Shown here in pieces: positions 1 through 10,681 of a stretch of 10,681 nucleotides of DNA. Under the pieces are notes generated by a model, which had not been told where the DNA came from, did not search any database, and saw only the letters and a program-made list of their open reading frames with translations. The position numbers and the translations under genes are program-made. This stretch comes from a virus (lineage: Duplodnaviria > Heunggongvirae > Uroviricota > Caudoviricetes). The stretch is from positions 1 to 10,681 of IMG/VR virus record IMGVR_UViG_2671181127_000010. One strand, written 5' to 3'. Position 1 is the first letter of the stretch. Every line of letters starts with the position of its first letter.

Positions 1-1242
1 ATGGCGAGAAAAACACCCCCATTAACCACAGTGCAGATCAAAGCAGCCAGACCAGCACAAAAGGAGTACACCCTACAGGACGGTGGGGGGCTTTTTCTCC
101 TGGTCAAACCGTCCGGATCAAAACTCTGGAGATTTTCCTACTACCGACCATCGGACAAAAAAAGAATATTACTTAGTTTTGGATCGCTTGATGATGTTTC
201 CCTGGCTGATGCCAGAAAACGCCGTAGCGAGTACAGGGCGTTAATTCTTGCCGGAACTGACCCTCAGGACCACGAGAGGCAAAAACGAGAGGCAGAGGCC
301 AGAAGACAGGGGAATACGTTCGAAAATGTGGCTGCGGCATGGTATCAGGTGAAAATCAGCCAGAATCTTGCACCCAACACGATTAAAGACATCTGGCGAT
401 CGCTGGAGAAATATATATTCCCGTTCATCGGCAACACGCCAATAGATACCCTCACCGCCCGAAGGTTCGTTGAAGTGCTTACCCCCATCAAGGAACGCGG
501 CAACCTGGAAACACTCAAGCGGGTTTTACAGCGCGTTAATGAGGTAATGGATTACGCCGCCAACAGTGGGCTGATTGATGCCAATCCGGCTATGAATGTG
601 CGTAAGGCGTTCCCCTCCCCTGTAAAAAAACATATGCCAACAATCAGGCCCGAGCAGTTGCCGGAACTTATGCAGGCTTTATCCGTATCGGCAACAGAAC
701 GGCAAACCAGGCTACTTATTGAGTGGCAGCTACTGACCGTAACCCGTCCAGTTGAAGCATCGTCGGCACGCTGGGAAGAAATCGACATGGAGGCGCAACG
801 CTGGACCATACCCGCCGGACGCATGAAGATGCGCCGCGACCACGTTATCCCGCTTTGTGACCAGGCTATGGCAGTGCTGGAGGCTATGAAACCAATCAGC
901 CACCACCGCGATTATGTTTTCCCGAGTCTGAAAGACCCACAGCAGCCGATGAACAGCCAGACCGCTAACGCAGCATTACGACGCATGGGGTTCGCTGGCG
1001 TGCTGGTGTCTCATGGATTACGCGCCATATTCAGCACAGCAGCGAACGAGGAAGGATTCGAGCCGGACGTAATAGAGGCGGCACTTGCCCACGTCGACAC
1101 CAACGAAGTTAGACGGGCATACAACCGGAGCAACTACATAGAAAAACGCATCGTGCTGATGCGCTGGTGGGGCGAATTTGTCGAGGCTGCGGCGACGGGC
1201 GTAACCCTCGCCAGTGGTAAAAGGGGTATCCGAGCCGTGTAG
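1..1242 (+). CDS. int: Tyrosine recombinase / integrase, P4-family (413 aa)
   Basis: Full ORF from window position 1. N-terminus LFLLVKPSGSKLWRFSYY resembles the P4-type integrase N-terminal domain; C-terminal catalytic-type motifs HGLRAIFST and a terminal Tyr region (RAYNRSNY). Followed by alpA, the typical satellite arrangement. Confidence 0.9.
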   Translation: MARKTPPLTTVQIKAARPAQKEYTLQDGGGLFLLVKPSGSKLWRFSYYRPSDKKRILLSFGSLDDVSLADARKRRSEYRALILAGTDPQDHERQKREAEARRQGNTFENVAAAWYQVKISQNLAPNTIKDIWRSLEKYIFPFIGNTPIDTLTARRFVEVLTPIKERGNLETLKRVLQRVNEVMDYAANSGLIDANPAMNVRKAFPSPVKKHMPTIRPEQLPELMQALSVSATERQTRLLIEWQLLTVTRPVEASSARWEEIDMEAQRWTIPAGRMKMRRDHVIPLCDQAMAVLEAMKPISHHRDYVFPSLKDPQQPMNSQTANAALRRMGFAGVLVSHGLRAIFSTAANEEGFEPDVIEAALAHVDTNEVRRAYNRSNYIEKRIVLMRWWGEFVEAAATGVTLASGKRGIRAV

Positions 1243-1319
1243 CTGTACAGAAAACCAGTAAAAACTACGAAAACCATGTAAAACCGTCGTATAATTGCAT
1301 CAAATTTAACGACAAGGCC

Positions 1320-1571
1320 GTGAAACATGAAACCGTTAAGATGCAAAAAAATATCAGATGCAATTGCGACGGGCTGCAACTGGCCCTGATGGTTCAGCAT
1401 GAATTTTGGTCAACCTACGATCCGGAGGACAGAACGACGGCCCCATCAAAAAAACAGGTAGTAGATTTTCTGGTATCCCGTGGCGCTTCCAGAAATCTGG
1501 CGGTAAGTATTGATAAGGTCGTACGTCCGGCATCTATGAAGATCGGAGGCAGGCCCAAAAAATGGCGGTAA
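1320..1571 (+). CDS. Hypothetical small protein (83 aa from GTG 1320; in-frame ATG at 1341)
   Basis: ORF between int and alpA, ends 10 bp before a clean intrinsic terminator; weak RBS, start uncertain; no recognisable motif. Confidence 0.3.
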   Translation: MKHETVKMQKNIRCNCDGLQLALMVQHEFWSTYDPEDRTTAPSKKQVVDFLVSRGASRNLAVSIDKVVRPASMKIGGRPKKWR

Positions 1572-1581
1572 CAATCCTGGA

Positions 1582-1606
1582 AGCGGCAGAAATGCCGCTT
1601 TTTTTA
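1582..1606 (+). terminator. Rho-independent terminator (AGCGGCA-gaaa-TGCCGCT plus T-run)
   Basis: Perfect 7-bp stem, 4-nt loop, followed by 8 T residues. Confidence 0.6.
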
Positions 1607-1632
1607 TAATTCCATTTCAAATCATCAATATA

Positions 1633-1720
1633 AAAAACGGTGTATACCGTTTAAAAACGGTGGGAACTGTTTTTACCCATATCCGATGATTTACCGTATT
1701 TGTCACCGGAATACACCGGA
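1633..1720. promoter_or_regulatory. Repeat-containing region upstream of alpA (candidate promoter/operator)
   Basis: Direct repeat AAAAACGGTG at 1633-1642 and 1653-1662 (20-bp phasing); small palindrome ACGGT-gtat-ACCGT at 1637-1650; tandem CACCGGA at 1704-1710 and 1714-1720. Confidence 0.3.
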
Positions 1721-1738
1721 TTCACAAGGTAAATCACG

Positions 1739-1945
1739 ATGGAAGCAATCAGAAAAATTATCTTTCGCCAGGAAGTAAAAAAAATTATCCACATCAAGGC
1801 AGACAGCACGCTGCAAAGCATGATCAACGCCGGAGAATTTCCGCAGGGTTTTCGCGTTGGTTTACGCCGTCGCGGATGGTATGAGGATGATGTGTTGGCC
1901 TGGCAGAAAGAACGCGAACAGGAAGCACGCGGAACGGCTGCTTAA
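1739..1945 (+). CDS. alpA: AlpA-family (prophage CP4-57 regulatory, Vis-like) small DNA-binding regulator, 68 aa
   Basis: Size, position downstream of a P4-family integrase, and motif FRQEV...GEFPQGFRVGLRRRGWYEDDVLAW matching the AlpA pattern (RLPEV...GxFP.P.KLG.R...W...V..W). RBS AAGG 9 nt upstream. Confidence 0.75.
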   Translation: MEAIRKIIFRQEVKKIIHIKADSTLQSMINAGEFPQGFRVGLRRRGWYEDDVLAWQKEREQEARGTAA

Positions 1946-2093
1946 CGGGTATCACAGATATGACAAACACGAAAAAAGCGGCCCCGATATGGAGCCGCCT
2001 TTCTGAACAATTAACCCGCTGCGCCTTATGTGTATATGATCCCAAACATAAGCACGGGGATGATAGCCGCTATCAGGCTGGTGGGCAATGCAA

Positions 2094-2282
2094 TCAGTCT
2101 GGTTCAGTTCGTTGCCATACCTGCAATGAGCGCGTTTCCCTGTACTCTTTAAGGAATTGCTCAAGGGCAAAAGCACATGGCGCGAATCTTTCTGATTCAT
2201 GCTCTATCTTTCTGCGCCGTCTTTTCCGTGCCGGTGATAATGTTTTGGTCAATTCTTTATCGGTCATTGTGTTGTCCTGCAT
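2094..2282 (-). CDS. Hypothetical small basic protein (62 aa; alternative start at 2267)
   Basis: ORF downstream of the RHH gene on the same strand; contains an RRRRK run; weak RBS. Low support. Confidence 0.2.
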   Translation of the reverse strand: MQDNTMTDKELTKTLSPARKRRRRKIEHESERFAPCAFALEQFLKEYRETRSLQVWQRTEPD

Positions 2283-2324
2283 AGCAATGCGCCGTAATAC
2301 CTTACACCACGGCGCTGATGGTGA

Positions 2325-2630
2325 TTACTCTGGTTCTTTGGTCTTGCGGCGCTGGAGTTCTTCACGTGCGACAGTGACGAGCTGCCCGATCTCCTCGGCG
2401 GCTTTGATTCCGAGTTTTTCCACCTGCGCCAGTGCATCGAGCGAAGAAACTAGGGGATTTTCTCCACTTCCTTCTGCCTGGCGCCGGGCGATCTCACCGC
2501 GTACAGCCGTAACTATAAAATTCGCTTTAGTTTCCCCTGGCTGTAGGGATGCCTCAATGCCACTCACTACTTCATGTGGAAATCTGGCATTCAGTTGCTG
2601 TGACTTATTGTTAACAGAACTCCTGGACAT
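2325..2630 (-). CDS. Ribbon-helix-helix (Arc/Mnt-like) DNA-binding protein, 101 aa; candidate master repressor of the island
   Basis: Start ATG at 2630-2628 (minus) preceded by strong RBS GGAGGTG. N-terminus QQLNARFPHEVVSGIEASLQPGETKANFIVTAV fits the Arc/Mnt RHH pattern (hN.R.P.EV...A...G.S.N..I...V). Divergent from the Ash operon across an operator-bearing intergenic region. The long ORF-track version (2325..2810) is an N-terminal over-extension. Confidence 0.65.
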   Translation of the reverse strand: MSRSSVNNKSQQLNARFPHEVVSGIEASLQPGETKANFIVTAVRGEIARRQAEGSGENPLVSSLDALAQVEKLGIKAAEEIGQLVTVAREELQRRKTKEPE

Positions 2631-2660
2631 GTTTGCACCTCCCATTAATAACGGGATGCA

Positions 2661-2727
2661 GTGTAATACAAAAGTGAATACCAAAAAAGACTTGAAATGG
2701 TATTCACCTAAATGTAATGTGAATACC
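2661..2727. promoter_or_regulatory. Operator array in divergent promoter region (9-bp inverted repeats GTGAATACC / GGTATTCAC)
   Basis: GTGAATACC at 2674-2682 and 2719-2727, GGTATTCAC at 2699-2707; TGTAAT immediately 5' of sites at 2662-2667 and 2713-2718; possible -35 TTGAAA at 2692-2697 lying inside the first inverted repeat. Confidence 0.55.
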
Positions 2728-2765
2728 ACAAGTGCTGATACATGCAATTCAGCAATTGAAACGAC

Positions 2766-2800
2766 GAAGCCCCGCACTGTTGGAGCAGTAACGGGGCTTC
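2766..2800 (+). other. Stem-loop in the 5' leader of the Ash operon (GAAGCCCCG ... CGGGGCTTC)
   Basis: Perfect 9-bp GC-rich inverted repeat with 17-nt loop, 28 bp upstream of the 2829 start codon; no T-run, so not a canonical terminator. Confidence 0.3.
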
Positions 2801-2828
2801 TAACCAACAACGTAAACTAGGAGCCGTT

Positions 2829-3386
2829 ATGGTTGCTGTAAATCATATACCACACCTTGTACACACACAAACGGCCTTTGTGTGGCGTTTTCTGGCCCTG
2901 AATATCGGAGAAAAAAACCGCTTGATCGCCACCAGCAAAAATGGCTATGATTCCCGCGCACCTCATAAAACGGGTGTCGGGATTAGCCTCCTGAAAACAA
3001 CTGAAGCGCACAGCACGCGCCCTGCGTGTTTTTTTGTGCCGCATAGTCACACCTTATCAATGGTGGGCTGTACGGGGGCGGAGCAATCCGCGCCGGTTTC
3101 TTCAGTGTCCGGTAAGGCTAACCCTGTACAGTCCGCCACCAGCGAAATTAGCCTTTTGCGTGGCGGTTATCTTAACCACACTGAGGAGGCTGCCAACATG
3201 GCTACTATCCCTACCCTTGTACATTCTCAAACCGCATTTATCTGGCGCTTTATCATCTTTGGCGCGTCAGAATCTCAAATCATCCACGTAACCGCCTGGA
3301 CGGAACGCGAAGCGCGTAGCCGTTGCCCGTCAGGTTGTGTTGCTGTATTCGCCGCCCGTATTCGTCAGGGGTCACATCATGCGTAA
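2829..3386 (+). CDS. Ash-family-like protein with C-terminal Icd-like domain (185 aa)
   Basis: RBS TAGGAG 6 nt upstream of ATG. Contains two copies of the motif VH.QTAF.WRF and a C-terminal TEREAR...VFAARIRQG block, which I recall as the signature of Ash / Icd-like small proteins of P4-type islands (family name from memory, not verified). Confidence 0.55.
   Translation: MVAVNHIPHLVHTQTAFVWRFLALNIGEKNRLIATSKNGYDSRAPHKTGVGISLLKTTEAHSTRPACFFVPHSHTLSMVGCTGAEQSAPVSSVSGKANPVQSATSEISLLRGGYLNHTEEAANMATIPTLVHSQTAFIWRFIIFGASESQIIHVTAWTEREARSRCPSGCVAVFAARIRQGSHHA
3198..3386 (+). CDS. Icd-like small protein, 62 aa: in-frame internal start inside the 2829..3386 ORF
   Basis: Strong RBS GAGGAGG 7 nt upstream of internal ATG 3198; product MATIPTLVHSQTAFIWRF...TEREARSR...VFAARIRQG is a complete Icd-like unit. 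Could be a separately translated nested product. Confidence 0.4.
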   Translation: MATIPTLVHSQTAFIWRFIIFGASESQIIHVTAWTEREARSRCPSGCVAVFAARIRQGSHHA

Positions 3387-3843
3387 AAACCGCTTGCAAA
3401 AAATTATAACGGGGCTGTATGCTTCCCCAGTCGCCCACATGGCGACCGGGTTTAGCAGCCTGAATACTACAGCGGACAGCCGCTTACATTCCGATATGCG
3501 GTTTTTTTGTGTCCGTAAACCTACCCATACCCGCATTATGGCGGGGCGTAACGGGGGAGCCTTTGCGCTCGCTGGTTCCTGTAGTGCCAGTCTGCTAACC
3601 CTGTTACGTCTCGCCACCCCGTTTAGCAGCGTAGTAGCGAGACTCCTTAATTTCACTACAGGAGCCTTTCACATGGCTGTATTCACACGCCCTTATTTTG
3701 TCTGGCGCTTTATGCAGTGCCACCACAGCAGCATTGATATTTACACCGTTACCGCAGCCACTGAACGCGAAGCCCGCGCCCAGTTGCCGCACGCACATCT
3801 GATTTTTGTCGCCCGTATTCGTCAGGGGGTGTGCCATGCCTGA
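3379..3843 (+). CDS. Ash-family-like paralog with C-terminal Icd-like domain (154 aa from ATG 3379)
   Basis: Motifs FFCVRKPTHTRIMAG (paralogous to CFFVPHSHTLSMVG in the upstream gene) and YFVWRF...TEREARAQ...IFVARIRQG. Start 3379 overlaps the upstream stop by 8 nt; the ORF-track start 3337 is probably an over-extension. Confidence 0.55.
   Translation: MRKNRLQKIITGLYASPVAHMATGFSSLNTTADSRLHSDMRFFCVRKPTHTRIMAGRNGGAFALAGSCSASLLTLLRLATPFSSVVARLLNFTTGAFHMAVFTRPYFVWRFMQCHHSSIDIYTVTAATEREARAQLPHAHLIFVARIRQGVCHA
3673..3843 (+). CDS. Icd-like small protein, 56 aa: in-frame internal start inside the 3379..3843 ORF
   Basis: RBS CAGGAG 8 nt upstream of ATG 3673; product MAVFTRPYFVWRF...TEREARAQ...VARIRQG. 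Confidence 0.35.
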   Translation: MAVFTRPYFVWRFMQCHHSSIDIYTVTAATEREARAQLPHAHLIFVARIRQGVCHA

Positions 3844-4156
3844 TATGTCAAATTACCAGTACCTGATTAATCCGCATTTTAAGTGTGATCATGATATTGC
3901 TAAGAAGGTTTATTCCGCTGCTTATGGGGCTACTGACAATATATCAATGGGTATTGCGTCAATTGGTAGCCTGATGTGGTATGCGTCAGAAAATAAGGAA
4001 TATGACGAAAAGGCCATGCGCATTGATATGGGTAATATCGGTTTGTTACTGGCAATGCTTGGGCAGTTTGATATTTCGTTACGGTGCACCATTGAAAATG
4101 CCAAAGATGCATTAAATGCTATAAAGAAAGCGAATACTGATTTAAATCGGGGATAA
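3836..4156 (+). CDS. Hypothetical protein, 106 aa, AT-rich cargo-like gene
   Basis: ATG 3836 with RBS GGGGGTG, overlaps upstream stop (ATGCCTGA). About 35% GC in the first 60 nt versus clearly more GC-rich flanking genes. No recognisable motif. Confidence 0.55.
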   Translation: MPDMSNYQYLINPHFKCDHDIAKKVYSAAYGATDNISMGIASIGSLMWYASENKEYDEKAMRIDMGNIGLLLAMLGQFDISLRCTIENAKDALNAIKKANTDLNRG

Positions 4157-4162
4157 ATAATC

Positions 4163-4462
4163 ATGAGAACATATTTATCTGGCTTGACTGCCAGCGGCCC
4201 CGCTCGGCCTGAAATCCGCCCCGGAGATATTTTCAGAGATAACTACGGTGGCGTTGTTGAGATTAAAGGCGTGGCAGAACGGCGCATTACCTACCGCCGT
4301 GAAGGCTACGAATATGATTGCGTGATGCCTGTTTATCAGTTCCGGCGTGATTTTTCTCTGGTACAGGCAGCGCCCCGCAGTAAACCAACCAGCAGGGAGA
4401 AAGCACGCGCCAATATTCAGGAAATAAGAAAGATGTTGAATGTATTCAGGGGTAAAAAATGA
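4163..4462 (+). CDS. Hypothetical protein, 99 aa, immediately upstream of and coupled to the primase
   Basis: ATG 4163; stop overlaps primase start (ATGA at 4459-4462). Basic C-terminus. Function unknown. Confidence 0.55.
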   Translation: MRTYLSGLTASGPARPEIRPGDIFRDNYGGVVEIKGVAERRITYRREGYEYDCVMPVYQFRRDFSLVQAAPRSKPTSREKARANIQEIRKMLNVFRGKK

Positions 4463-6207
4463 AACTGGCACCGAACGTAAAAAAACAACCACGCGGAATA
4501 AAACACAAAGACACAGAGGTAATTATTTTCGCGGGTAGTGATGCGTGGGCACATGCAAAACAGTGGCAGGAGCAGGACGGCCCCGCATCCGGCGATAATG
4601 TGCCGCCTGTGTGGCTTGGGCCAAATCAGCTTGCCGAACTTGATGCACTGAAAATTGTTCCTGATGGAAAAAAACGCGTAAGGCTGTACCAGGCCGGAGA
4701 ACTGGATTTGGTGGAGACCAAAAAGATTGGTCAGAAGCTGGCGGCGGCAGATATTCAGGACGCAAATTTTTACCCCGAAGGAATGCACGTCCAGAAGTGT
4801 GAAAACTGGCGGCGCTATCTGAATGCTGAGCGTGAAAATATTGCCGCAGGGCTTACCATGCCGGAGCAGAAAAATACGCAACTGGCACAAATGGCAGACA
4901 GTGAGCGCGCGCAGCTGCTTGCCGAGCGCTTTGATGGCGTTTGTGTGCATCCGGAAAGTGAAATCGTTCACGTATGGCGCGGCGGGGTATGGTGTCCGGT
5001 CAGCACAATGGAACTTAGCCGCGAAATGGTGGCGATCTATTCAGAGCACAGGGCCACTTTCAGCAAGCGCGTAATCAATAACGCCGTGGAAGCGTTAAAA
5101 GTTATTGCCGAACCAATGGGCGAGCCGTCCGGCGATTTGTTGCCGTTCGCCAATGGTGCGCTTGACCTGAAAACGGGGGAATTTTCCCCGCACACGCCGG
5201 AGAACTGGATCACCACGCACAACGGCATTGAGTACACGCCACCAGCACCAGGGGAGAATATCTGCGACAACGCGCCAAACTTTCATAAATGGCTTGAGCA
5301 CGCAGCCGGAAAAGACCCGCGCAAGATGATGCGTATATGTGCCGCGCTGTACATGATTATGGCGAACCGGTACGACTGGCAGATGTTTATTGAGGCCACC
5401 GGAGAGGGCGGTAGCGGTAAAAGTACATTCACGCACATAGCCAGCCTTCTGGCAGGGAAACAGAACACGGTAAGCGCTGAAATGACCTCACTTGATGATG
5501 CTGGTGGACGTGCGCAGGTTGTCGGGAGTCGTCTTATCGTCCTGGCTGACCAGCCGAAATATACAGGCGAAGGAACGGGCATCAAGAAAATCACGGGCGG
5601 CGACCCCGTGGAAATAAACCCGAAATATGAGAAGCGTTTTACGGCGGTAATCAGGGCGGTGGTGCTGGCTACCAACAATAACCCGATGATATTCACCGAG
5701 CGGGCCGGAGGTGTGTCACGCCGTCGGGTGATTTTCCGGTTCGACAACATTGTAAGGGAGGACGAAAAAGACAAGGATTTGCCGGAGAAGGTCGCGGCTG
5801 AAATCCCCGTAATTATCCGTCGCTTGCTGGCTAATTTTGCCGACCCTGAAAAGGCACGGGCTTTATTACTGGAACAGCGCGACGGTGATGAAGCTCTGGC
5901 AATAAAGCAACAGACGGATCCGGTTATTGAGTTTTGCCAGTTCCTGAATTTTCTGGAGGAAGCACGCGGCCTGATGATGGGCGGCGGTGGCGATTCAGTG
6001 AAGTACACGACCAGAAACAGCCTTTACCGCGTCTATCTGGCGTTTATGGCATACGCAGGCAGGAGCAAACCGCTAAACGTGGCTGAGTTCAGCAAGGCCA
6101 TGAAGACAGCGGCAAAAGTTTACGGACATGAATATATTACGCGGAGAGTTAAGGGAGTAACGCAGACCAACGCAATTACAACTGATGATTGTGACGCGTT
6201 TTTATAA
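4459..6207 (+). CDS. Replication protein: primase / D5-type SF3 NTPase (P4 alpha C-terminal-like), 582 aa
   Basis: Walker A GEGGSGKST encoded around 5401-5427 in the D5/P4-alpha-type context (phage/plasmid primase P4-family C-terminal NTPase); RBS AGGGG 7 nt upstream; followed directly by an iteron array. Confidence 0.88.
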   Translation: MKLAPNVKKQPRGIKHKDTEVIIFAGSDAWAHAKQWQEQDGPASGDNVPPVWLGPNQLAELDALKIVPDGKKRVRLYQAGELDLVETKKIGQKLAAADIQDANFYPEGMHVQKCENWRRYLNAERENIAAGLTMPEQKNTQLAQMADSERAQLLAERFDGVCVHPESEIVHVWRGGVWCPVSTMELSREMVAIYSEHRATFSKRVINNAVEALKVIAEPMGEPSGDLLPFANGALDLKTGEFSPHTPENWITTHNGIEYTPPAPGENICDNAPNFHKWLEHAAGKDPRKMMRICAALYMIMANRYDWQMFIEATGEGGSGKSTFTHIASLLAGKQNTVSAEMTSLDDAGGRAQVVGSRLIVLADQPKYTGEGTGIKKITGGDPVEINPKYEKRFTAVIRAVVLATNNNPMIFTERAGGVSRRRVIFRFDNIVREDEKDKDLPEKVAAEIPVIIRRLLANFADPEKARALLLEQRDGDEALAIKQQTDPVIEFCQFLNFLEEARGLMMGGGGDSVKYTTRNSLYRVYLAFMAYAGRSKPLNVAEFSKAMKTAAKVYGHEYITRRVKGVTQTNAITTDDCDAFL

Positions 6208-6219
6208 TTTTTTGTAAAA

Positions 6220-6446
6220 GCCCTCTACCCCATCTACCTGAATGAAATAAACGCATATTATTCAACATGATAAGTGGGTAGAGGGCTAGGTAGAAGGCTA
6301 ATAAAACCTCTCTACCTCTTCTACCATGATTAAGATCGTTTGTGAGGGGCGGGTAGAGGATGGGTAGAGGGCCACGAAAGCCCTCTACCCATCTGAAAGC
6401 CGCGCCATTACTGACATGAAAGATGATTAGGTAGAGAGGTAGAGGA
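6220..6446. repeat. Iteron array / putative replication origin (11 copies of GGTAGAGG / CCTCTACC and variants)
   Basis: Octamer copies at 6222, 6231, 6277, 6289, 6309, 6318, 6352, 6363, 6382, 6430, 6438 in both orientations; perfect 14-bp inverted repeat GATGGGTAGAGGGC (6359-6372) / GCCCTCTACCCATC (6380-6393); AT-rich segment 6239-6275 between repeat clusters. Confidence 0.7.
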
Positions 6447-6493
6447 GGTGCACCACAACCTAAAACTTTTTAAACACGAGGGTAAAAATAAAA

Positions 6494-6772
6494 ATGCACA
6501 CATCAGGAAGATTTAACAAATCACTCAAAAAACGCAAAGACAGAACAGCACCAAGATATAAAGCGCTGGAGATGACAGAGCACGCCTTAAAGGTGGCTAT
6601 AAAGGTGATAGACATCACAGCGGGAGAAGGATACTCGAAAGCACATCCCGAACTAATAAGCGCATTCATGACCACGGCGGCGGCAAACTTTGCCACGCTG
6701 ACAGAGCGGGAGATTGCAGAAGCGGAACAGGTAACAACCATCAACGTTAAAACCGGAGAGGTGGAATCATGA
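6494..6772 (+). CDS. Hypothetical protein, 92 aa
   Basis: ORF directly after the iterons; stop overlaps the SSB start (ATGA at 6769-6772); RBS-like GAGGGT about 11 nt upstream. Confidence 0.5.
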   Translation: MHTSGRFNKSLKKRKDRTAPRYKALEMTEHALKVAIKVIDITAGEGYSKAHPELISAFMTTAAANFATLTEREIAEAEQVTTINVKTGEVES

Positions 6773-7179
6773 CAGCACAGATAGCCGCTTACGGGCGGCT
6801 GGTGGACGACCCGCAGGTAAAACAGACCAGCAAGGGTACACCGATGACGCTGGCGCGTATGGCGGTATCTTTGCCATGTAGTCAGGCGCAGGATGGGCAG
6901 GCGACGTTATGGCTATCGGTCATCGCATTTGGTAAGCAGGCCGACTTCCTGGCTAAACATCAAAAAGGCGACGTTGCCAGCGTATCCGGCACGATGCAGG
7001 TCAGCCAGTGGACCGGACAGAACGGGGAAACGCGGCAGGGTTATCAGGTTATTGCAGACAGCGTAATCAGTGCCCGTGCGGCACGTCCTGGCGGGAACAG
7101 ACGCAAAACCACAGGCACACAGGGTAATCAGCCACCAGCGGGAGACGATGACCCCTACGGTGATGATATTCAGTTCTGA
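6769..7179 (+). CDS. ssb: Single-stranded DNA-binding protein (SSB family), 136 aa
   Basis: N-terminal OB-fold pattern IAAYGRLVDDPQVKQTSKGTPMTLARMAVS and LWLSVIAFGKQADFLA...QVSQWTGQNGETRQGYQV parallels E. coli SSB; Gly/Pro/Gln-rich linker; acidic C-terminal tip DDDPYGDDIQF analogous to the SSB DDDIPF tail. RBS GGAGAGG upstream. Confidence 0.8.
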   Translation: MTAQIAAYGRLVDDPQVKQTSKGTPMTLARMAVSLPCSQAQDGQATLWLSVIAFGKQADFLAKHQKGDVASVSGTMQVSQWTGQNGETRQGYQVIADSVISARAARPGGNRRKTTGTQGNQPPAGDDDPYGDDIQF

Positions 7180-7189
7180 GGGGGTGACG

Positions 7190-7462
7190 ATGGTACATGA
7201 CCGCATAGCGGAGGAACTCGAGGCAAAAGGCTTTTACCGGAGGGCATCGGCGCGATGGGGTGAAGTCATGCTGCTGGTGGAGACAGACAAGGAACGGCAT
7301 CAGGTTACGATGCGACGGCTGGAATGTTCCAGGAAGGCACAGAAGCCACCGGAGCCGCCGGATAACTTCGGAGACCTGAGAAAGGCAGTAGATCGCACTT
7401 ATGCTGAAATGGGTATAGATGGTGTAAGCGATGAAATATGGCGTAATTACCCAGACAGCTAA
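7190..7462 (+). CDS. Hypothetical protein, 90 aa
   Basis: ATG 7190 with RBS GGGGGTGA, 11 nt after the SSB stop; the ORF-track start 7070 overlaps the SSB and is an over-extension. Followed by a terminator. Confidence 0.55.
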   Translation: MVHDRIAEELEAKGFYRRASARWGEVMLLVETDKERHQVTMRRLECSRKAQKPPEPPDNFGDLRKAVDRTYAEMGIDGVSDEIWRNYPDS

Positions 7463-7468
7463 TCAACA

Positions 7469-7490
7469 GCCGGAGTAATCCGGCTTTTTT
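7469..7490 (+). terminator. Rho-independent terminator (GCCGGA-gtaa-TCCGGC plus T6)
   Basis: Perfect 6-bp GC stem, tetraloop, T-run. Confidence 0.7.
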
Positions 7491-7496
7491 GTACCC

Positions 7497-7540
7497 AAAA
7501 AAAGCCCGATAAGTACAGGAGGCATCTTATCGGGCTTTTG
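7497..7540. terminator. Second hairpin, potentially bidirectional terminator (A-run, GCCCGATAAG ... CTTATCGGGC, T-run)
   Basis: Perfect 10-bp stem at 7504-7513 / 7526-7535, flanked by A7 upstream and T4 downstream. Confidence 0.5.
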
Positions 7541-7573
7541 CATATGAGGTTTTTTTTGGTGCACTGACACACA

Positions 7574-7666
7574 TGATCGGGATCATCATTTCATAATTTG
7601 CAACACAACTCAACATCATTGCATAAAATGCAATCATGATTATAATCAGATCTGGATGAACATCCA
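7574..7666 (+). promoter_or_regulatory. Sigma70-type promoter with overlapping palindromic operators, upstream of the capsid module
   Basis: TTGCAT (7619-7624), 16-bp spacer, TATAAT (7641-7646). Palindromes: TGATCggGATCA 7574-7585; TTGCAT-aaa-ATGCAA 7619-7633 over the -35; TGATTATAATCA 7637-7648 over the -10; CTGGATG-aa-CATCCAG 7651-7666 at the predicted transcript start. Confidence 0.55.
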
Positions 7667-7702
7667 GTTATGATTTTTTAAGTCAAAGAGGAATTTCTTA
7701 CT

Positions 7703-7909
7703 ATGGCTGAAGAGAAAAAAGGCGGTGTTTCGGTGTACATAAGCCCCGACATCGTGAAGGCGCTCAAGGAACGCCACCAGCAGAACGTAAAAGCAGGCAT
7801 TGCGGCAGGACTTGATCCGCTGGCGATGGTTGAGCCGTCAACAGGCTGGCAGGTACGCGCCTATTTACGCGCGGCGCTGGGTATGAATCAGGTTCACGGG
7901 GGTGAATAA
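7703..7909 (+). CDS. Hypothetical small protein, 68 aa, first gene of the capsid module
   Basis: RBS AAGAGGA 10 nt upstream; stop overlaps the capsid gene start (TAATG). VSVYISPDIVKALKERH could be a beta-strand/helix DNA- or protein-binding element; function unknown. Confidence 0.6.
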   Translation: MAEEKKGGVSVYISPDIVKALKERHQQNVKAGIAAGLDPLAMVEPSTGWQVRAYLRAALGMNQVHGGE

Positions 7910-8964
7910 TGACAGTAAAAGCAATAGCACTTAACACTAACCAGCTTTTCGCGTACCTGAATCGCGAGGATATTGCGGAATTTAAATTCAGTCCGCTGTT
8001 TACCGCGCTGTTTTTCCCGAACGTGGCGACATTCAACACACAGGACATCATGTTAGATAACCTGGATATTGAAGAAGTCACTATGTCGGCGTTTTGTTCG
8101 CCTATGGTTGGTAGCCAGGTTCAGCGCGATAAAGGGTACGAAACCAGCATTATTCGCCCTGGCTACATGAAGCCAAAACACGAAATCGATCCATTAAAAA
8201 CAATAATGCGCATGGCTGGAGAAGATCCGGCACAGCTTAACGACCCTACCTACCGCCGTATGCGCCTGATTACTGGCAACATGCGCCGCCAGATAAACGC
8301 CATTAAAGCGCGCGTGGAATGGCTGGCGGTGAATGCGATAACGACCGGAAAAAACATCATTGAGGGCGAAGGCATAGAGCGCTATGAAATCGACTGGAAG
8401 ATACCGGAAAAAAACATCATAGAGCAGGCCGACGGTAAAAAATGGTCAGAGCAGGACAAAGACATACACGACCCAATCTATGACATTGAGCTATACGCAG
8501 ATCAGGCAGGTTGCCCCGCAAACGTCATGATTATGGGCGTTGATGTATGGCGCATGTTACGCAGCTTTAAAAAATTCCGTGAACTGTACGATCTCTCCCG
8601 TGGTTCAGAATCCGCCGCAGAGCTGGCATGTAAAAACCTGGGAGAAGTGGTGAGCTTTAAAGGCTATCTTGGTGATCTGGCCCTTATCGTCTATTCCGGC
8701 AAATACACTGACAGCGACGGCACAGAAAAATATTTCCTTGCGCCTGATTTGCTGGTCCTGGGCAACACCAACAATAAAGGGCTGGTGGCCTATGGTGCGA
8801 TTATGGAACAGGAAGCGGTAAGAACGGGCGCAACGCAAAACATGTTTTACCCGAAAAACTGGATTGAAGACGGCGATCCGGCGATTGAGTACGTGCAGAC
8901 ACACAGCGCGCCGCAGCCTGTTCCGGCAGATATTCGCAAATTTGTTACCGTCAAAATTGGTTAA
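7909..8964 (+). CDS. Major capsid protein, phage lambda gpE family (351 aa)
   Basis: Multiple blocks match my recollection of lambda gpE: FKFSPLFTALFF vs FKFDPLFLRLFF; PGYMKPKHEIDP vs PGYVKPKHEVNP; EDPAQLNDPTYRRMRLITGNMR vs EDPQNLADPAYRRRRIIMQNMR; WSEQDKDIHDPIYDIELYA vs WSKRDKSTYDPTDDIEAYA; YPKNWIEDGDPAIEY..QTHSAP vs YPKNWVTTGDPAREF..IQSAP. Similar length (351 vs 341 aa). Confidence 0.85.
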   Translation: MTVKAIALNTNQLFAYLNREDIAEFKFSPLFTALFFPNVATFNTQDIMLDNLDIEEVTMSAFCSPMVGSQVQRDKGYETSIIRPGYMKPKHEIDPLKTIMRMAGEDPAQLNDPTYRRMRLITGNMRRQINAIKARVEWLAVNAITTGKNIIEGEGIERYEIDWKIPEKNIIEQADGKKWSEQDKDIHDPIYDIELYADQAGCPANVMIMGVDVWRMLRSFKKFRELYDLSRGSESAAELACKNLGEVVSFKGYLGDLALIVYSGKYTDSDGTEKYFLAPDLLVLGNTNNKGLVAYGAIMEQEAVRTGATQNMFYPKNWIEDGDPAIEYVQTHSAPQPVPADIRKFVTVKIG

Positions 8965-8975
8965 CGGTGGATTCT

Positions 8976-9311
8976 ATGAACACTCCATACATTGAGTTAT
9001 TTGCAGGCAGTCAGCAGGTATCAACGACGCTGGTACATTTTGCCGCTGATGCTGGCGTTATTCAGGAATTTACCCCGCTGATGCTGGCGGACAATGGCGA
9101 GTTTAAGCCGTGGGATGGTCAGGAATCTGGCAAGGCTGTTTATCTGACTTCGTATCCTGTGGACACGTCAAAGCAGAAATCAGCACAGTGTTACAAGACG
9201 GGGATATTCAATATTGCCGCCGTTAACTGGCCTGAGAGCGTCGACACCGATGCGAAAAAATGCGCCGCCTTTGCGGGTTCCGGCGTATCCGTTCAGCCGC
9301 TGGCCCGATAA
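8976..9311 (+). CDS. Head decoration protein, lambda gpD-like (111 aa from ATG 8976; alternative GTG start 8967)
   Basis: TPLMLA, WDG, and C-terminal YKTGIFN...VNWPESVDTDAKKCAAFAGSGVSV parallel lambda gpD ([44 protein letters not shown]). RBS GGTGGA 5 nt upstream of ATG 8976. Confidence 0.8.
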   Translation: MNTPYIELFAGSQQVSTTLVHFAADAGVIQEFTPLMLADNGEFKPWDGQESGKAVYLTSYPVDTSKQKSAQCYKTGIFNIAAVNWPESVDTDAKKCAAFAGSGVSVQPLAR

Positions 9312-9323
9312 GCAGGGGGAACG

Positions 9324-9737
9324 ATGGCAACGAATGAAAGCATCATGGCGCTACCGCTGGCGAGTAAATTTAAAGAAGAAGCGCGGGCAATGGCTGACAG
9401 AGGTTTATCAACCTACGAGGCCGTATATCAACTCAACAAACTGGAAGAGCAGGACAAGCCGCGCGCTGATGCGATTATGGCGCTTCATGAGCATAAAGAC
9501 TATCAGCCGCTGTTACGTGCAATGGCAAACGTGCCATGTATTAGCGTCGATAATGCTCGTGAAATCCTGAACATGACCATAGAGCAGGAGCGCCCAAAGG
9601 TTGCACCAGAGCTTACCGCAGCCTTTGAAAACTTTATGGACATGCACAGCCCGCAAGCCGTATCAGCTGGCATGGCATACGATGGCAGAAACCAGGGCGA
9701 TGACGGCGACATCGATCGCATACTGAAAACCATCTGA
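9324..9737 (+). CDS. Hypothetical protein, 137 aa, last gene of the capsid module
   Basis: RBS GGGGGA 5 nt upstream; acidic C-terminus; followed by a terminator and a cos site. No confident motif. Confidence 0.6.
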   Translation: MATNESIMALPLASKFKEEARAMADRGLSTYEAVYQLNKLEEQDKPRADAIMALHEHKDYQPLLRAMANVPCISVDNAREILNMTIEQERPKVAPELTAAFENFMDMHSPQAVSAGMAYDGRNQGDDGDIDRILKTI

Positions 9738-9743
9738 GACAAG

Positions 9744-9767
9744 GCCGGAGAAATCCGGCTTTTTTTT
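9744..9767 (+). terminator. Rho-independent terminator (GCCGGA-gaaa-TCCGGC plus T8)
   Basis: Perfect 6-bp stem, tetraloop, 8 T residues; near-identical to the hairpin at 7469-7490. Confidence 0.7.
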
Positions 9768-9768
9768 A

Positions 9769-9840
9769 CGGGTCCTTTCCGGCATATGGACCCGTTACGG
9801 GGCGGCGACCTCGCGGTTTTTCGCTATTTATGAGATTTTT
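9769..9840 (+). other. Lambda-type cos site, copy L (cosN core GGGCGGCGACCT at 9800-9811, cosB side to the right)
   Basis: 9800-9838 reads GGGCGGCGACCTCGCGGTTTTTCGCTATTTATGAGATTT, close to the lambda genome left end GGGCGGCGACCTCGCGGGTTTTCGCTATTTATGAAAATTTTCCGG. Preceded by a hairpin ACGGGTCC...GGACCCGT. Confidence 0.75.
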
Positions 9841-10187
9841 TGAGGGGGTGGTTGTTGTTTAATTGTTTGGTATATCTAATTGATAAGTAAGGTAAAAATA
9901 AAATAAATACAACAACCTTACGATGTATTTTGATGTCATTAATGTGAAAAAATTCAATGATATCAAATGGTTTTGTAAAAACACATGGTTGTTGTATCGC
10001 GTATTTGATGGCGTAACAGAAAGTGATTTTTAACTTTACCGCTCTGTAACTACGGATTATTCCATGCTGGCACGGAGAACGGCTACGGCATGACGCCACC
10101 CAGCCTATACAGAACAGTAAAGCCGATAAATTGTTAATCACGCGCAGCAATGCGTGTGATTTTTGCACACTTCCGGTTAACTGGTAC

Positions 10188-10286
10188 GATGTCCGGTTTT
10201 AGTGTCTGTTTTTTGCGCATGTCCGGTTCATGGAAAGCATGTTTTTATATTTTTCATATGGTTAACTTGCAGAGAAACCGGACATG
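10188..10286. repeat. Candidate cosB R-type elements for the R cos site (ATGTCCGGTT repeats)
   Basis: ATGTCCGGTT at 10189-10198 and 10219-10228 (direct), inverted copy AACCGGACATG at 10276-10286, partial copy TCCGGTT at 10172-10178; positioned about 40, 100 and 130 bp from the R cosN, resembling the R3/R2/R1 layout of lambda cosB as I recall it. Confidence 0.4.
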
Positions 10287-10292
10287 GATCCC

Positions 10293-10370
10293 GGAAAATT
10301 TTCATAAATAGTGAAAACGCGCGAGGTCGCCGCCCCGTAACGGGCCATAATTCCAGGAAGGACCCGACGA
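10293..10370 (-). other. Lambda-type cos site, copy R (cosN core at 10324-10335 on the minus strand, cosB side to the left)
   Basis: Reverse complement of 10293-10335 reads GGGCGGCGACCTCGCGCGTTTTCACTATTTATGAAAATTTTCCGG, two mismatches from the lambda left-end sequence over 45 nt. Forms a roughly 70-bp imperfect inverted repeat with copy L. Confidence 0.8.
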
Positions 10371-10399
10371 CACCAGACTATCAGAGCGATGGGGGCACA

Positions 10400-10681
10400 A
10401 TGACAGAAGCCGAACTACTGGGATTAATCCGCCGCGTCGCCGGAATCAGCCAGCAGCATGACGAACAGGCCACACAGCCGGACAGCGTGACCGCTGAAAA
10501 TTATGTGCGTGTTGTAGCGGAAGTGATGCGCCGTGATGGTATAGAACTTAATGGCGTTGATATGCGCAACATACGGAACCGCGTTCTTGAAATGCTGGCC
10601 TACAATCGCCGCGTTGAACTGTATCGGGAGAAAGAAAAAATAACGTACCACTGGAAGAAGCCGGAACGGCTGCGGCGGTAA
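10400..10681 (+). CDS. Hypothetical small basic protein, 93 aa, adjacent to the R cos site
   Basis: ATG 10400 with G-rich RBS; the ORF-track extension from 10202 runs through the cos site and is rejected. Ends at the window edge with TAA. Function unknown. Confidence 0.5.
   Translation: MTEAELLGLIRRVAGISQQHDEQATQPDSVTAENYVRVVAEVMRRDGIELNGVDMRNIRNRVLEMLAYNRRVELYREKEKITYHWKKPERLRR

Follow-up and report, generated by a model that had tools for sequence, protein, structure and literature searches.

The DNA studied here, a window of 10,681 nucleotides (positions 1 to 10,681 of the IMG/VR virus record IMGVR_UViG_2671181127_000010), is a complete phage-inducible chromosomal island (PICI) of the EcCICFT073 family, a helper-dependent phage satellite. 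It opens with the start codon of the integrase gene and closes with the stop codon of the final island open reading frame (ORF). Positions 7584–9762 of the window form the island's own late transcription unit, which carries a matched set of shell parts. An initial annotation of the DNA had described a four-gene module with a lambda gpE-like and a gpD-like gene, and the ORFs, Pfam and BLASTP searches against gpE and gpD agree with that description. The last gene of the module is a homolog of the Nu3/gp6 scaffolds of lambdoid phages. The unit and its immediate borders contain the following features.

7468–7539, + strand: two hairpins that end the upstream unit of the single-stranded DNA-binding protein (SSB) and PerC genes, one terminator-like (7468–7485) and one a 14-nt perfect inverted repeat (7500–7539)

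7584–7675, + strand: candidate control region of the capsid operon, with repeats, a palindrome and promoter hexamers

7703–7909, + strand: satellite-specific protein of 68 residues, a possible ribbon-helix-helix (RHH) DNA binder (phrog_3255, annotated as of unknown function)

7909–8964, + strand: major capsid protein (MCP) of 351 residues, lambda gpE type with HK97 fold (Pfam Phage_cap_E, PF03864, E 2.6e-49)

8976–9311, + strand: head decoration (cement) protein (Dec) of 111 residues, gpD/SHP type (Pfam HDPD, PF02924, E 5.5e-18)

9324–9737, + strand: putative protease-less mini-scaffold of 137 residues, with two tandem units of about 44 residues and a Nu3/gp6 C-terminal tail

9741–9762, + strand: terminator-like hairpin closing the operon

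The four genes at 7703–9737 encode proteins of 68, 351, 111 and 137 residues and are separated by −1, 11 and 12 nt. The stop codon of the 68-residue gene overlaps the start codon of the MCP gene (TAATG), and the 11- and 12-nt gaps each contain a Shine-Dalgarno-like sequence. For Dec, an alternative upstream start is possible at a GTG at position 8967. The gene order is E-D-(137 aa), in contrast to the C/Nu3-D-E order of lambda and phage 21, so the inversion of E and D noted initially was correct. The head module of lambda and phage 21 (C/Nu3 or gp5/gp6, D or SHP, E or gp7) contains homologs of all three island proteins. It differs from the module in the window, where the order is reversed, the scaffold gene stands alone without an S49 protease domain, portal and terminase genes are absent, and the proteins are only 25–48% identical to their phage counterparts.

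The assignment of the MCP is clear from several comparisons. The Phage_cap_E match spans profile positions 14–328 of 329, and the protein is 43% identical to lambda gpE over 328 residues (BLASTP, E 8e-92). The best phage MCP match is 47–48% identical, and none exceeds 48%. A near-identical homolog has been solved as Protein Data Bank entry 3BQW ("putative capsid protein of prophage," 351 residues, E 2e-228), and 7VI9 is a further solved homolog; a scan of genome contigs with the MCP gave a single match, which was irrelevant. The MCP is colinear with gpE without any indel in the body, and the only length difference is an N-terminal arm about nine residues longer than in the phage proteins. Dec is 36% identical to lambda gpD over 76 residues (BLASTP, E 2e-13). 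Its closest solved structure is SHP of phage 21 (1TD0, 1.7e-13), which is nearer than gpD (4e-9), and its N terminus is about seven residues shorter than that of SHP. On the lambda capsid, the N terminus of gpD pairs with the E-loop and the N-arm of gpE. Given this pairing, the changes in the MCP arm and the Dec N terminus may reflect a private fit between the two island proteins.

The protein of 137 residues was traced to phage scaffolds by several routes. It matches the C terminus of phrog_53 (head maturation protease; positions 494–567 of 583, E 1e-10), and it is 39% identical over 83 residues to the C terminus of a 501-residue phage-21-like protease-scaffold (C/Nu3) protein (E 2e-12). When all 50,697 phage records were searched by tblastn, the same region, lying upstream of D and E, was matched in one phage (E 3e-6). 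The phage 21 annotation assigns this region to a scaffolding protein of its own, gp6, which corresponds to lambda Nu3. Alignment of the island family with seven phage scaffolds by hhalign gave a probability of 97% and an E value of 1e-10, with island residues 45–118 corresponding to residues 111–183 of the 200 in gp6. In a divergent island lineage, whose MCP is 62–63% identical, a homolog of 129 residues independently matches the same region of phrog_53. BLAST of the protein against lambda gpC gave no match, and the relation is visible only through phage-21-type proteins and profiles. A search of 1.8 billion representative proteins returned nine matches, mostly close relatives or fragments of its own family; the remaining ones were a homolog of 134 residues (41% identical) and two Nu3-like scaffolds. 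Pfam detected no S49 protease domain in the protein, and NCBIfam contained no family for any of the four operon proteins.

The internal organization of the protein also resembles that of phage scaffolds. It appears to be made up of two units of about 44 residues, each a Nu3 repeat and 33% identical to each other, followed by a conserved tail, F-E-x-F-M-x-x-H-S-P, that is common to the phage 21/Gifsy-type scaffolds. Natural variants of 93 residues (P0056, P0060, and P0062) lack exactly one 44-residue unit. Read from their sequences, gp6 of phage 21 has three such units and lambda Nu3 has one. The number of repeats therefore varies among the islands (one or two) as it does among the phages (one to three). 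The gene is a stand-alone one of 414 bp that follows Dec; it does not lie in frame inside the 3′ end of an S49 protease gene. Taken at the level of sequence, the product is a protease-less miniature version of the Nu3/gp6 scaffold, for which internal scaffolding activity is predicted. In a second island lineage (L007 10236–10619; L008 10238–10621), MCP and Dec are followed by an AlpA-like helix-turn-helix (HTH) protein (Pfam E 7.6e-9). This lineage has no scaffold homolog, no gene for the 68-residue protein and no TTGCA-N5-TGCAA palindrome.

Homologs of the 68-residue protein are confined to enterobacterial islands (E. coli, Salmonella, and Pluralibacter; Enterobacteriaceae), and none was found among the 50,697 phage records. 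An AlphaFold2 model, with a predicted local distance difference test (pLDDT) score of 74, shows a strand-helix-helix arrangement (strand 10–13, helices 15–34 and 47–58). Weak Pfam matches to BrnA (antitoxin, 0.017) and RHH_1 (CopG, 0.13) occur in three of the 11 family members, and a Foldseek search with the model returned nothing significant. That the protein is an RHH DNA-binding regulator is thus possible but unproven. It was also considered as a gpW counterpart, which was ruled out as there is no similarity.

The candidate control region upstream of this gene contains two 20-nt direct repeats, CATCATTKCATAAWWTGCAA, at 7584–7603 and 7614–7633. A perfect palindrome, ATTGCATAAAATGCAAT, at 7618–7634 overlaps a weak −35 hexamer (TTGCAT, 7619–7624), and beyond it come a perfect −10 hexamer (TATAAT, 7641–7646) and a second inverted repeat (7644–7675); both hexamers were identified by eye, and a promoter scan did not call them. 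The motif is unique within the window and persists even in a lineage with a gene identity of only about 66%. The exact palindrome is found once in 10 loci carrying the gene for the 68-residue protein and in neither of two island loci without that gene. This distribution suggests a dedicated operator, and the 68-residue protein may be what binds to the palindrome.

The module is widespread. Counting genomes in which at least 80% of the length of the block is covered, it is present in 597 of 5426 complete E. coli genomes, about one in nine, including O157:H7, CFT073, and Nissle 1917. A further 80 loci come from IMG/VR, and in these the 68-residue protein and the MCP have full-length matches in all 80 and Dec in 78. 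The 137-residue protein is full length in 68 of the 75 IMG/VR loci with a match, and several of the others end at a contig edge. In eight close variants, the lengths of the four ORFs are constant despite differing replication modules (primase, RepA helicase, or DUF927) and Rpp types. A ninth, distant lineage, which was compared separately, has retained the lengths of the 68-residue protein and the MCP. The ratio of non-synonymous to synonymous substitution (dN/dS), calculated by the pairwise Nei-Gojobori method over the 28 pairs of the eight close variants, lies between 0.11 and 0.31 overall, with values of 0.12 for the MCP, 0.11 for Dec, about 0.3 for the 68-residue protein and 0.29 for the 137-residue protein. 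All four genes are under purifying selection.

The satellite MCPs, which share 54–69% identity, form a clade apart from the phage MCPs. The satellite Dec proteins (50–68% mutual identity) likewise form a clade apart from phage Dec, with branching similar to that of the MCP tree. Both are midpoint-rooted neighbor-joining trees of 15 MCP and 13 Dec sequences, which are small and indicative only. Their similarity points to a co-inherited MCP-Dec pair that has long been kept in satellites.

Related lineages are found within gene E of a helper or, apparently, within gene A. In three IMG/VR loci (L029 5945–6727; L058 11711–12304; L061 7275–8021), the MCP gene is followed, after a few kb, by a match to the lambda portal protein gpB that begins at residue 273. 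The MCPs of these loci are of the window type, 93–99% identical, and the islands look as if embedded in a helper and inserted in its portal gene. At a Salmonella locus (L018), a GpA_ATPase fragment lies just upstream of the integrase gene, suggesting insertion in the terminase gene.

The remainder of the window identifies the element. The features outside the capsid operon that bear on replication and packaging are listed here.

6217–6442: iterons (ori), GGGTAGAGG, just downstream of the primase gene

9769–9840, + strand: cos1, with a cosQ-like flank, cosN GGGCGGCGACCT (9800–9811) and the start of cosB; exact lambda cosN

10295–10366, − strand: cos2, an inverted cos copy with cosN at 10324–10335; exact lambda cosN, cosQ-like flank

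The satellite backbone that was recognized at the outset is borne out for integrase, primase, iterons and cos by Pfam, PHROG, the repeats and cosN, with an AlpA-like gene as a probable further member. Tyrosine integrase domains are found at the left end (Pfam, E 4e-29). The AlpA-like gene matches Pfam Phage_AlpA with an E value of 0.0035 and 17.6 bits, which is under the 21-bit cut-off, and phrog_66 ("excisionase and transcriptional regulator") at 5.5e-7; its position is that of an HTH gene of the same size annotated in the Nissle island. The primase is of the P4 type, with D5_N, DUF5906, and Pox_D5 domains and a match to the primase family phrog_864 (6e-170). The island also encodes SSB and a PerC-family regulator. 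The latter gene (7190–7462, Pfam E 1.6e-44), directly upstream of the capsid operon, is present in some island variants and absent from others, with a full-length match in 48 of the 80 IMG/VR loci.

The nearest genome copy, in E. coli STEC2018-607, is 98.3% identical. There, tRNA-Pro lies 219 bp upstream of the integrase gene, and the island is bounded by yejM/tRNA-Pro and yejO. The Nissle 1917 copy, 91% identical, occupies the same tRNA-Pro/yejM site, and over the capsid block the window and strain CFT073 are 94.6% identical in DNA. The element is assigned to the EcCICFT073 family because of this shared chromosomal site and the identity of the capsid block. With EcCICFT073 it shares the layout of int, a probable alpA, the icd-like region, primase, ori iterons, SSB, PerC, the genes for the 68-residue protein, MCP, Dec and the 137-residue protein, two inverted lambda-type cos sites (cos1 and cos2) and the last gene. 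It differs in that the copy in the window has no rpp between cos1 and cos2.

Neither the window nor its chromosomal flanks contain a portal, protease or terminase gene, as judged from the ORF list, Pfam, PHROG and the 98.3% identical genome copy, so the absence first noticed in the window extends beyond it. A capsid-forming PICI (cf-PICI), for example EcCIEDL933, is also a satellite with its own MCP on an int/alpA/rep backbone. Such elements carry the full set of MCP, protease, portal, connectors, terminase subunits TerS and TerL, and HNH, in contrast to the window island with its MCP, Dec and scaffold fragment only. Classification as a cf-PICI was ruled out because the MCP is not accompanied by any portal, S49 protease or terminase match in the window or flanks. 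A P4-like satellite was ruled out as well: the defining genes sid, psu, and delta are absent from the ORF list and from the RefSeq annotation of the 98% identical copy, and the P4-type primase is the sole shared feature. The initial annotation had also allowed for a remnant of an ordinary lambdoid prophage with portal, protease and terminase genes adjacent. The chromosomal flanks, which hold none of these genes, the intact ORFs under selection and the separate clade of satellite proteins exclude this.

The two cos sites have been named before (PMC6092414, PMC6739421). No ORF matching Nu1/TerS, as expected for rpp, is present between them in the window, whereas rpp occupies the aligned inter-cos position in the Nissle and CFT073 copies. 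In its place, 9812–10323 is an AT-rich stretch without a credible ORF, and the ORFs of the inter-cos segment have no family match; the DNA on its right side agrees with the CFT073 island. The rpp-less variant occurs in 46 of the 5426 complete E. coli genomes, and Rpp is not universal within the EcCICFT073-type family. The last island gene (10400–10681, 93 residues, phrog_1561, annotated as of unknown function) lies just past cos2 and has a full-length match in 54 of the 80 IMG/VR loci. In the left part of the window, Rfam identifies an isrK RNA (2958–3034) and two C4 antisense RNAs (3056–3143 and 3534–3621). The C4 copies fall in the region of Icd-like genes in the 98% identical copy, a layout that resembles the c4-icd-ant immunity region of P1/P7.

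A capsid gene in such an island is not new to the literature. The initial annotation had left it open whether the pair was already described for enterobacterial PICIs; Fillol-Salom et al. reported it in 2018, naming c1499 (capsid) and c1500 (head decoration) in EcCICFT073 (PMC6092414), and the MCP structure 3BQW had been deposited. For this relative, helper-induced excision, replication and high-frequency transfer were demonstrated in the same study (PMC6092414). An MCP gene is present in 21 of 29 reference Gram-negative PICIs (PMC10111431). In 2019, the Fillol-Salom group expressed the post-ori genes singly, and only c1503 (rppA) inhibited lambda and phi80. Our literature searches found no later paper that explains the function of the capsid and decoration genes.

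We tentatively favor the reading that the module is a shell-building kit used on the portal of a helper phage, although we rate it at somewhat less than an even chance. Once a lambdoid helper is induced, the island proteins, with or without helper subunits among them, would form a shell on the portal of the helper. After the helper protease had cleared the mini-scaffold, DNA would be packaged into this shell from the island cos sites by the helper terminase; the expanded shell would then be locked by the island Dec and receive helper tails. In this form, the kit would be a partial step towards the capsid-forming PICIs. The proposal retains part of what was first suggested, namely that the island supplies its own capsid lattice and borrows the remaining parts from its helper: the other head and packaging genes are indeed absent. 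It departs from that suggestion on the scaffold, which the island does not borrow entirely, because the 137-residue gene is itself a Nu3/gp6 homolog. In lambda, gpD attaches to heads only when they are expanded and filled with DNA, and the phage depends on it only when the packaged genome is nearly full length. With this role and a dN/dS of 0.11 for Dec, it can be argued that the island MCP takes part in real packaged heads and is not only a poison. The strongest argument for a kit is a cement protein that is matched to the island MCP and kept under strong selection.

Several observations weigh against this reading. The main counter-evidence is that deletion of c1499 or c1500 neither restored lambda plaques nor changed the transfer of the island with resident prophages (PMC6092414), so that with lambda and the resident prophages the kit would have to be redundant. 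With lambda, moreover, all packaged EcCICFT073 DNA was phage-sized (PMC6092414). The incorporation of island MCP into virions is, like each assembly step and the benefit to the island, something that we infer. The scaffold is not universal, because the lineage of L007 and L008 has the AlpA-like HTH protein in its place. The AlphaFold2 monomer model of the 137-residue protein is helical and of low confidence (pLDDT 48), which makes it uninformative, and the rooting of the trees is crude. Dispensability in the laboratory could be explained if lambda-type helpers supply interchangeable E/D shells, as we propose.

Other roles for the module have to be weighed against the same evidence. It could redirect capsid size: with natural helpers other than lambda, the MCP and the short scaffold would build small heads that hold one or two island genomes and exclude the helper genome, in the manner of Ccm of SaPIbov5 combined with CpmB of SaPI1. 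Ccm from the Staphylococcus aureus island SaPIbov5 is a satellite-borne MCP homolog, and CpmB is a satellite scaffold that has its MCP-binding C terminus in common with the helper scaffold; the window island has an analog of each, with no sequence relationship. The scaffold of 137 (or 93) residues with two (or one) units, compared with 200 residues and three units in gp6 of phage 21, fits such a role, as does the longer N-terminal arm of the MCP. The Pasteurella PICI PmCI172 carries an MCP homolog and makes small heads (PMC6092414), and the window copy, having no Rpp, would need another route to exclusive heads. On the other hand, small capsids of the SaPI kind were not seen for EcCICFT073 with lambda, the packaged DNA being phage-sized throughout, and by our arithmetic a lambda head of full size would match four island units (about 10.7 kb each, about 43 kb together). 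The body of the MCP has no indels relative to gpE, the module is equally conserved in islands that have Rpp, and the window MCP differs from the SaPI systems in having its own cement protein. We consider size redirection unlikely. Interference with particular helpers is decidedly so. Here the MCP, Dec or scaffold would co-assemble with, and poison, the heads of lambdoid phages other than those tried, protecting the host population or favoring the island. Capsid proteins are a common means of interference among satellites (Dokland review, PMC6893505), and the shared F-E-x-F-M-x-x-H-S-P tail could allow binding to a helper MCP. A dominant-negative decoy, as initially put forward, is however contradicted for lambda and phi80: lambda interference persisted when c1499 or c1500 was deleted, and rppA was the sole inhibitor among the genes expressed singly. 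Furthermore, a poison needs no matched cement protein under strong purifying selection.

An origin of the module in PICIs embedded within helper head genes would give it a different use, that of backing up or topping up the helper's capsid supply without any island-specific particle, an idea raised earlier (PMC10111431). The window-type MCPs in islands apparently inserted in a helper portal gene, and the related lineages inside gene E or apparently gene A, are in line with this. Yet islands that interrupt a portal or terminase gene carry MCP and Dec and not a version of that gene. A recent backup copy would also not be expected to show only 42–48% identity to phage MCPs and to come with a matched Dec, as the satellite MCP does. 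Islands integrated at a tRNA gene also keep the module under selection, and overall this explanation appears improbable. Highly improbable, in our estimate, is a role outside the virion, for example as a decoy that distracts capsid-sensing host immunity, or a leftover of a decaying lambdoid prophage. The lack of a phenotype for the deletions would suit either. A remnant is nevertheless excluded by the intact MCP and 68-residue ORFs in all 80 loci, the dN/dS values of 0.1–0.3 and the chromosomal flanks, and a decoy for immune sensors would leave the co-inheritance of the cement and scaffold genes unaccounted for.

With the capsid and decoration pair already described, what is added here is the scaffold identity of the 137-residue gene, a possible regulator and operator, the satellite clades and purifying selection, and a copy without Rpp. 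These points sharpen an acknowledged open question and do not open a new one. The module is under clear purifying selection, yet the only published knockouts have no phenotype, and the reason for which capsid and cement genes persist in classical PICIs is therefore a real question. Recognition of the third gene as a scaffold fragment, together with an MCP-Dec pair that evolves inside satellites as a unit, makes that question more testable, and the kit holds the three parts that we would expect to suffice for shell formation in vitro. A more far-reaching version of the kit reading, which we regard as rather unlikely, would make the EcCICFT073-type islands capsid-forming satellites of a "shell-only" kind. 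Paired with natural helpers, they would build island-specific and possibly smaller heads on a stolen portal, with the number of scaffold repeats (1, 2, or 3) acting as a dial for size or compatibility, and they would represent a missing intermediate between classical PICIs and cf-PICIs. If island-specific heads are indeed built, this would link the classical and the capsid-forming PICIs and would matter for engineered PICI delivery vehicles.

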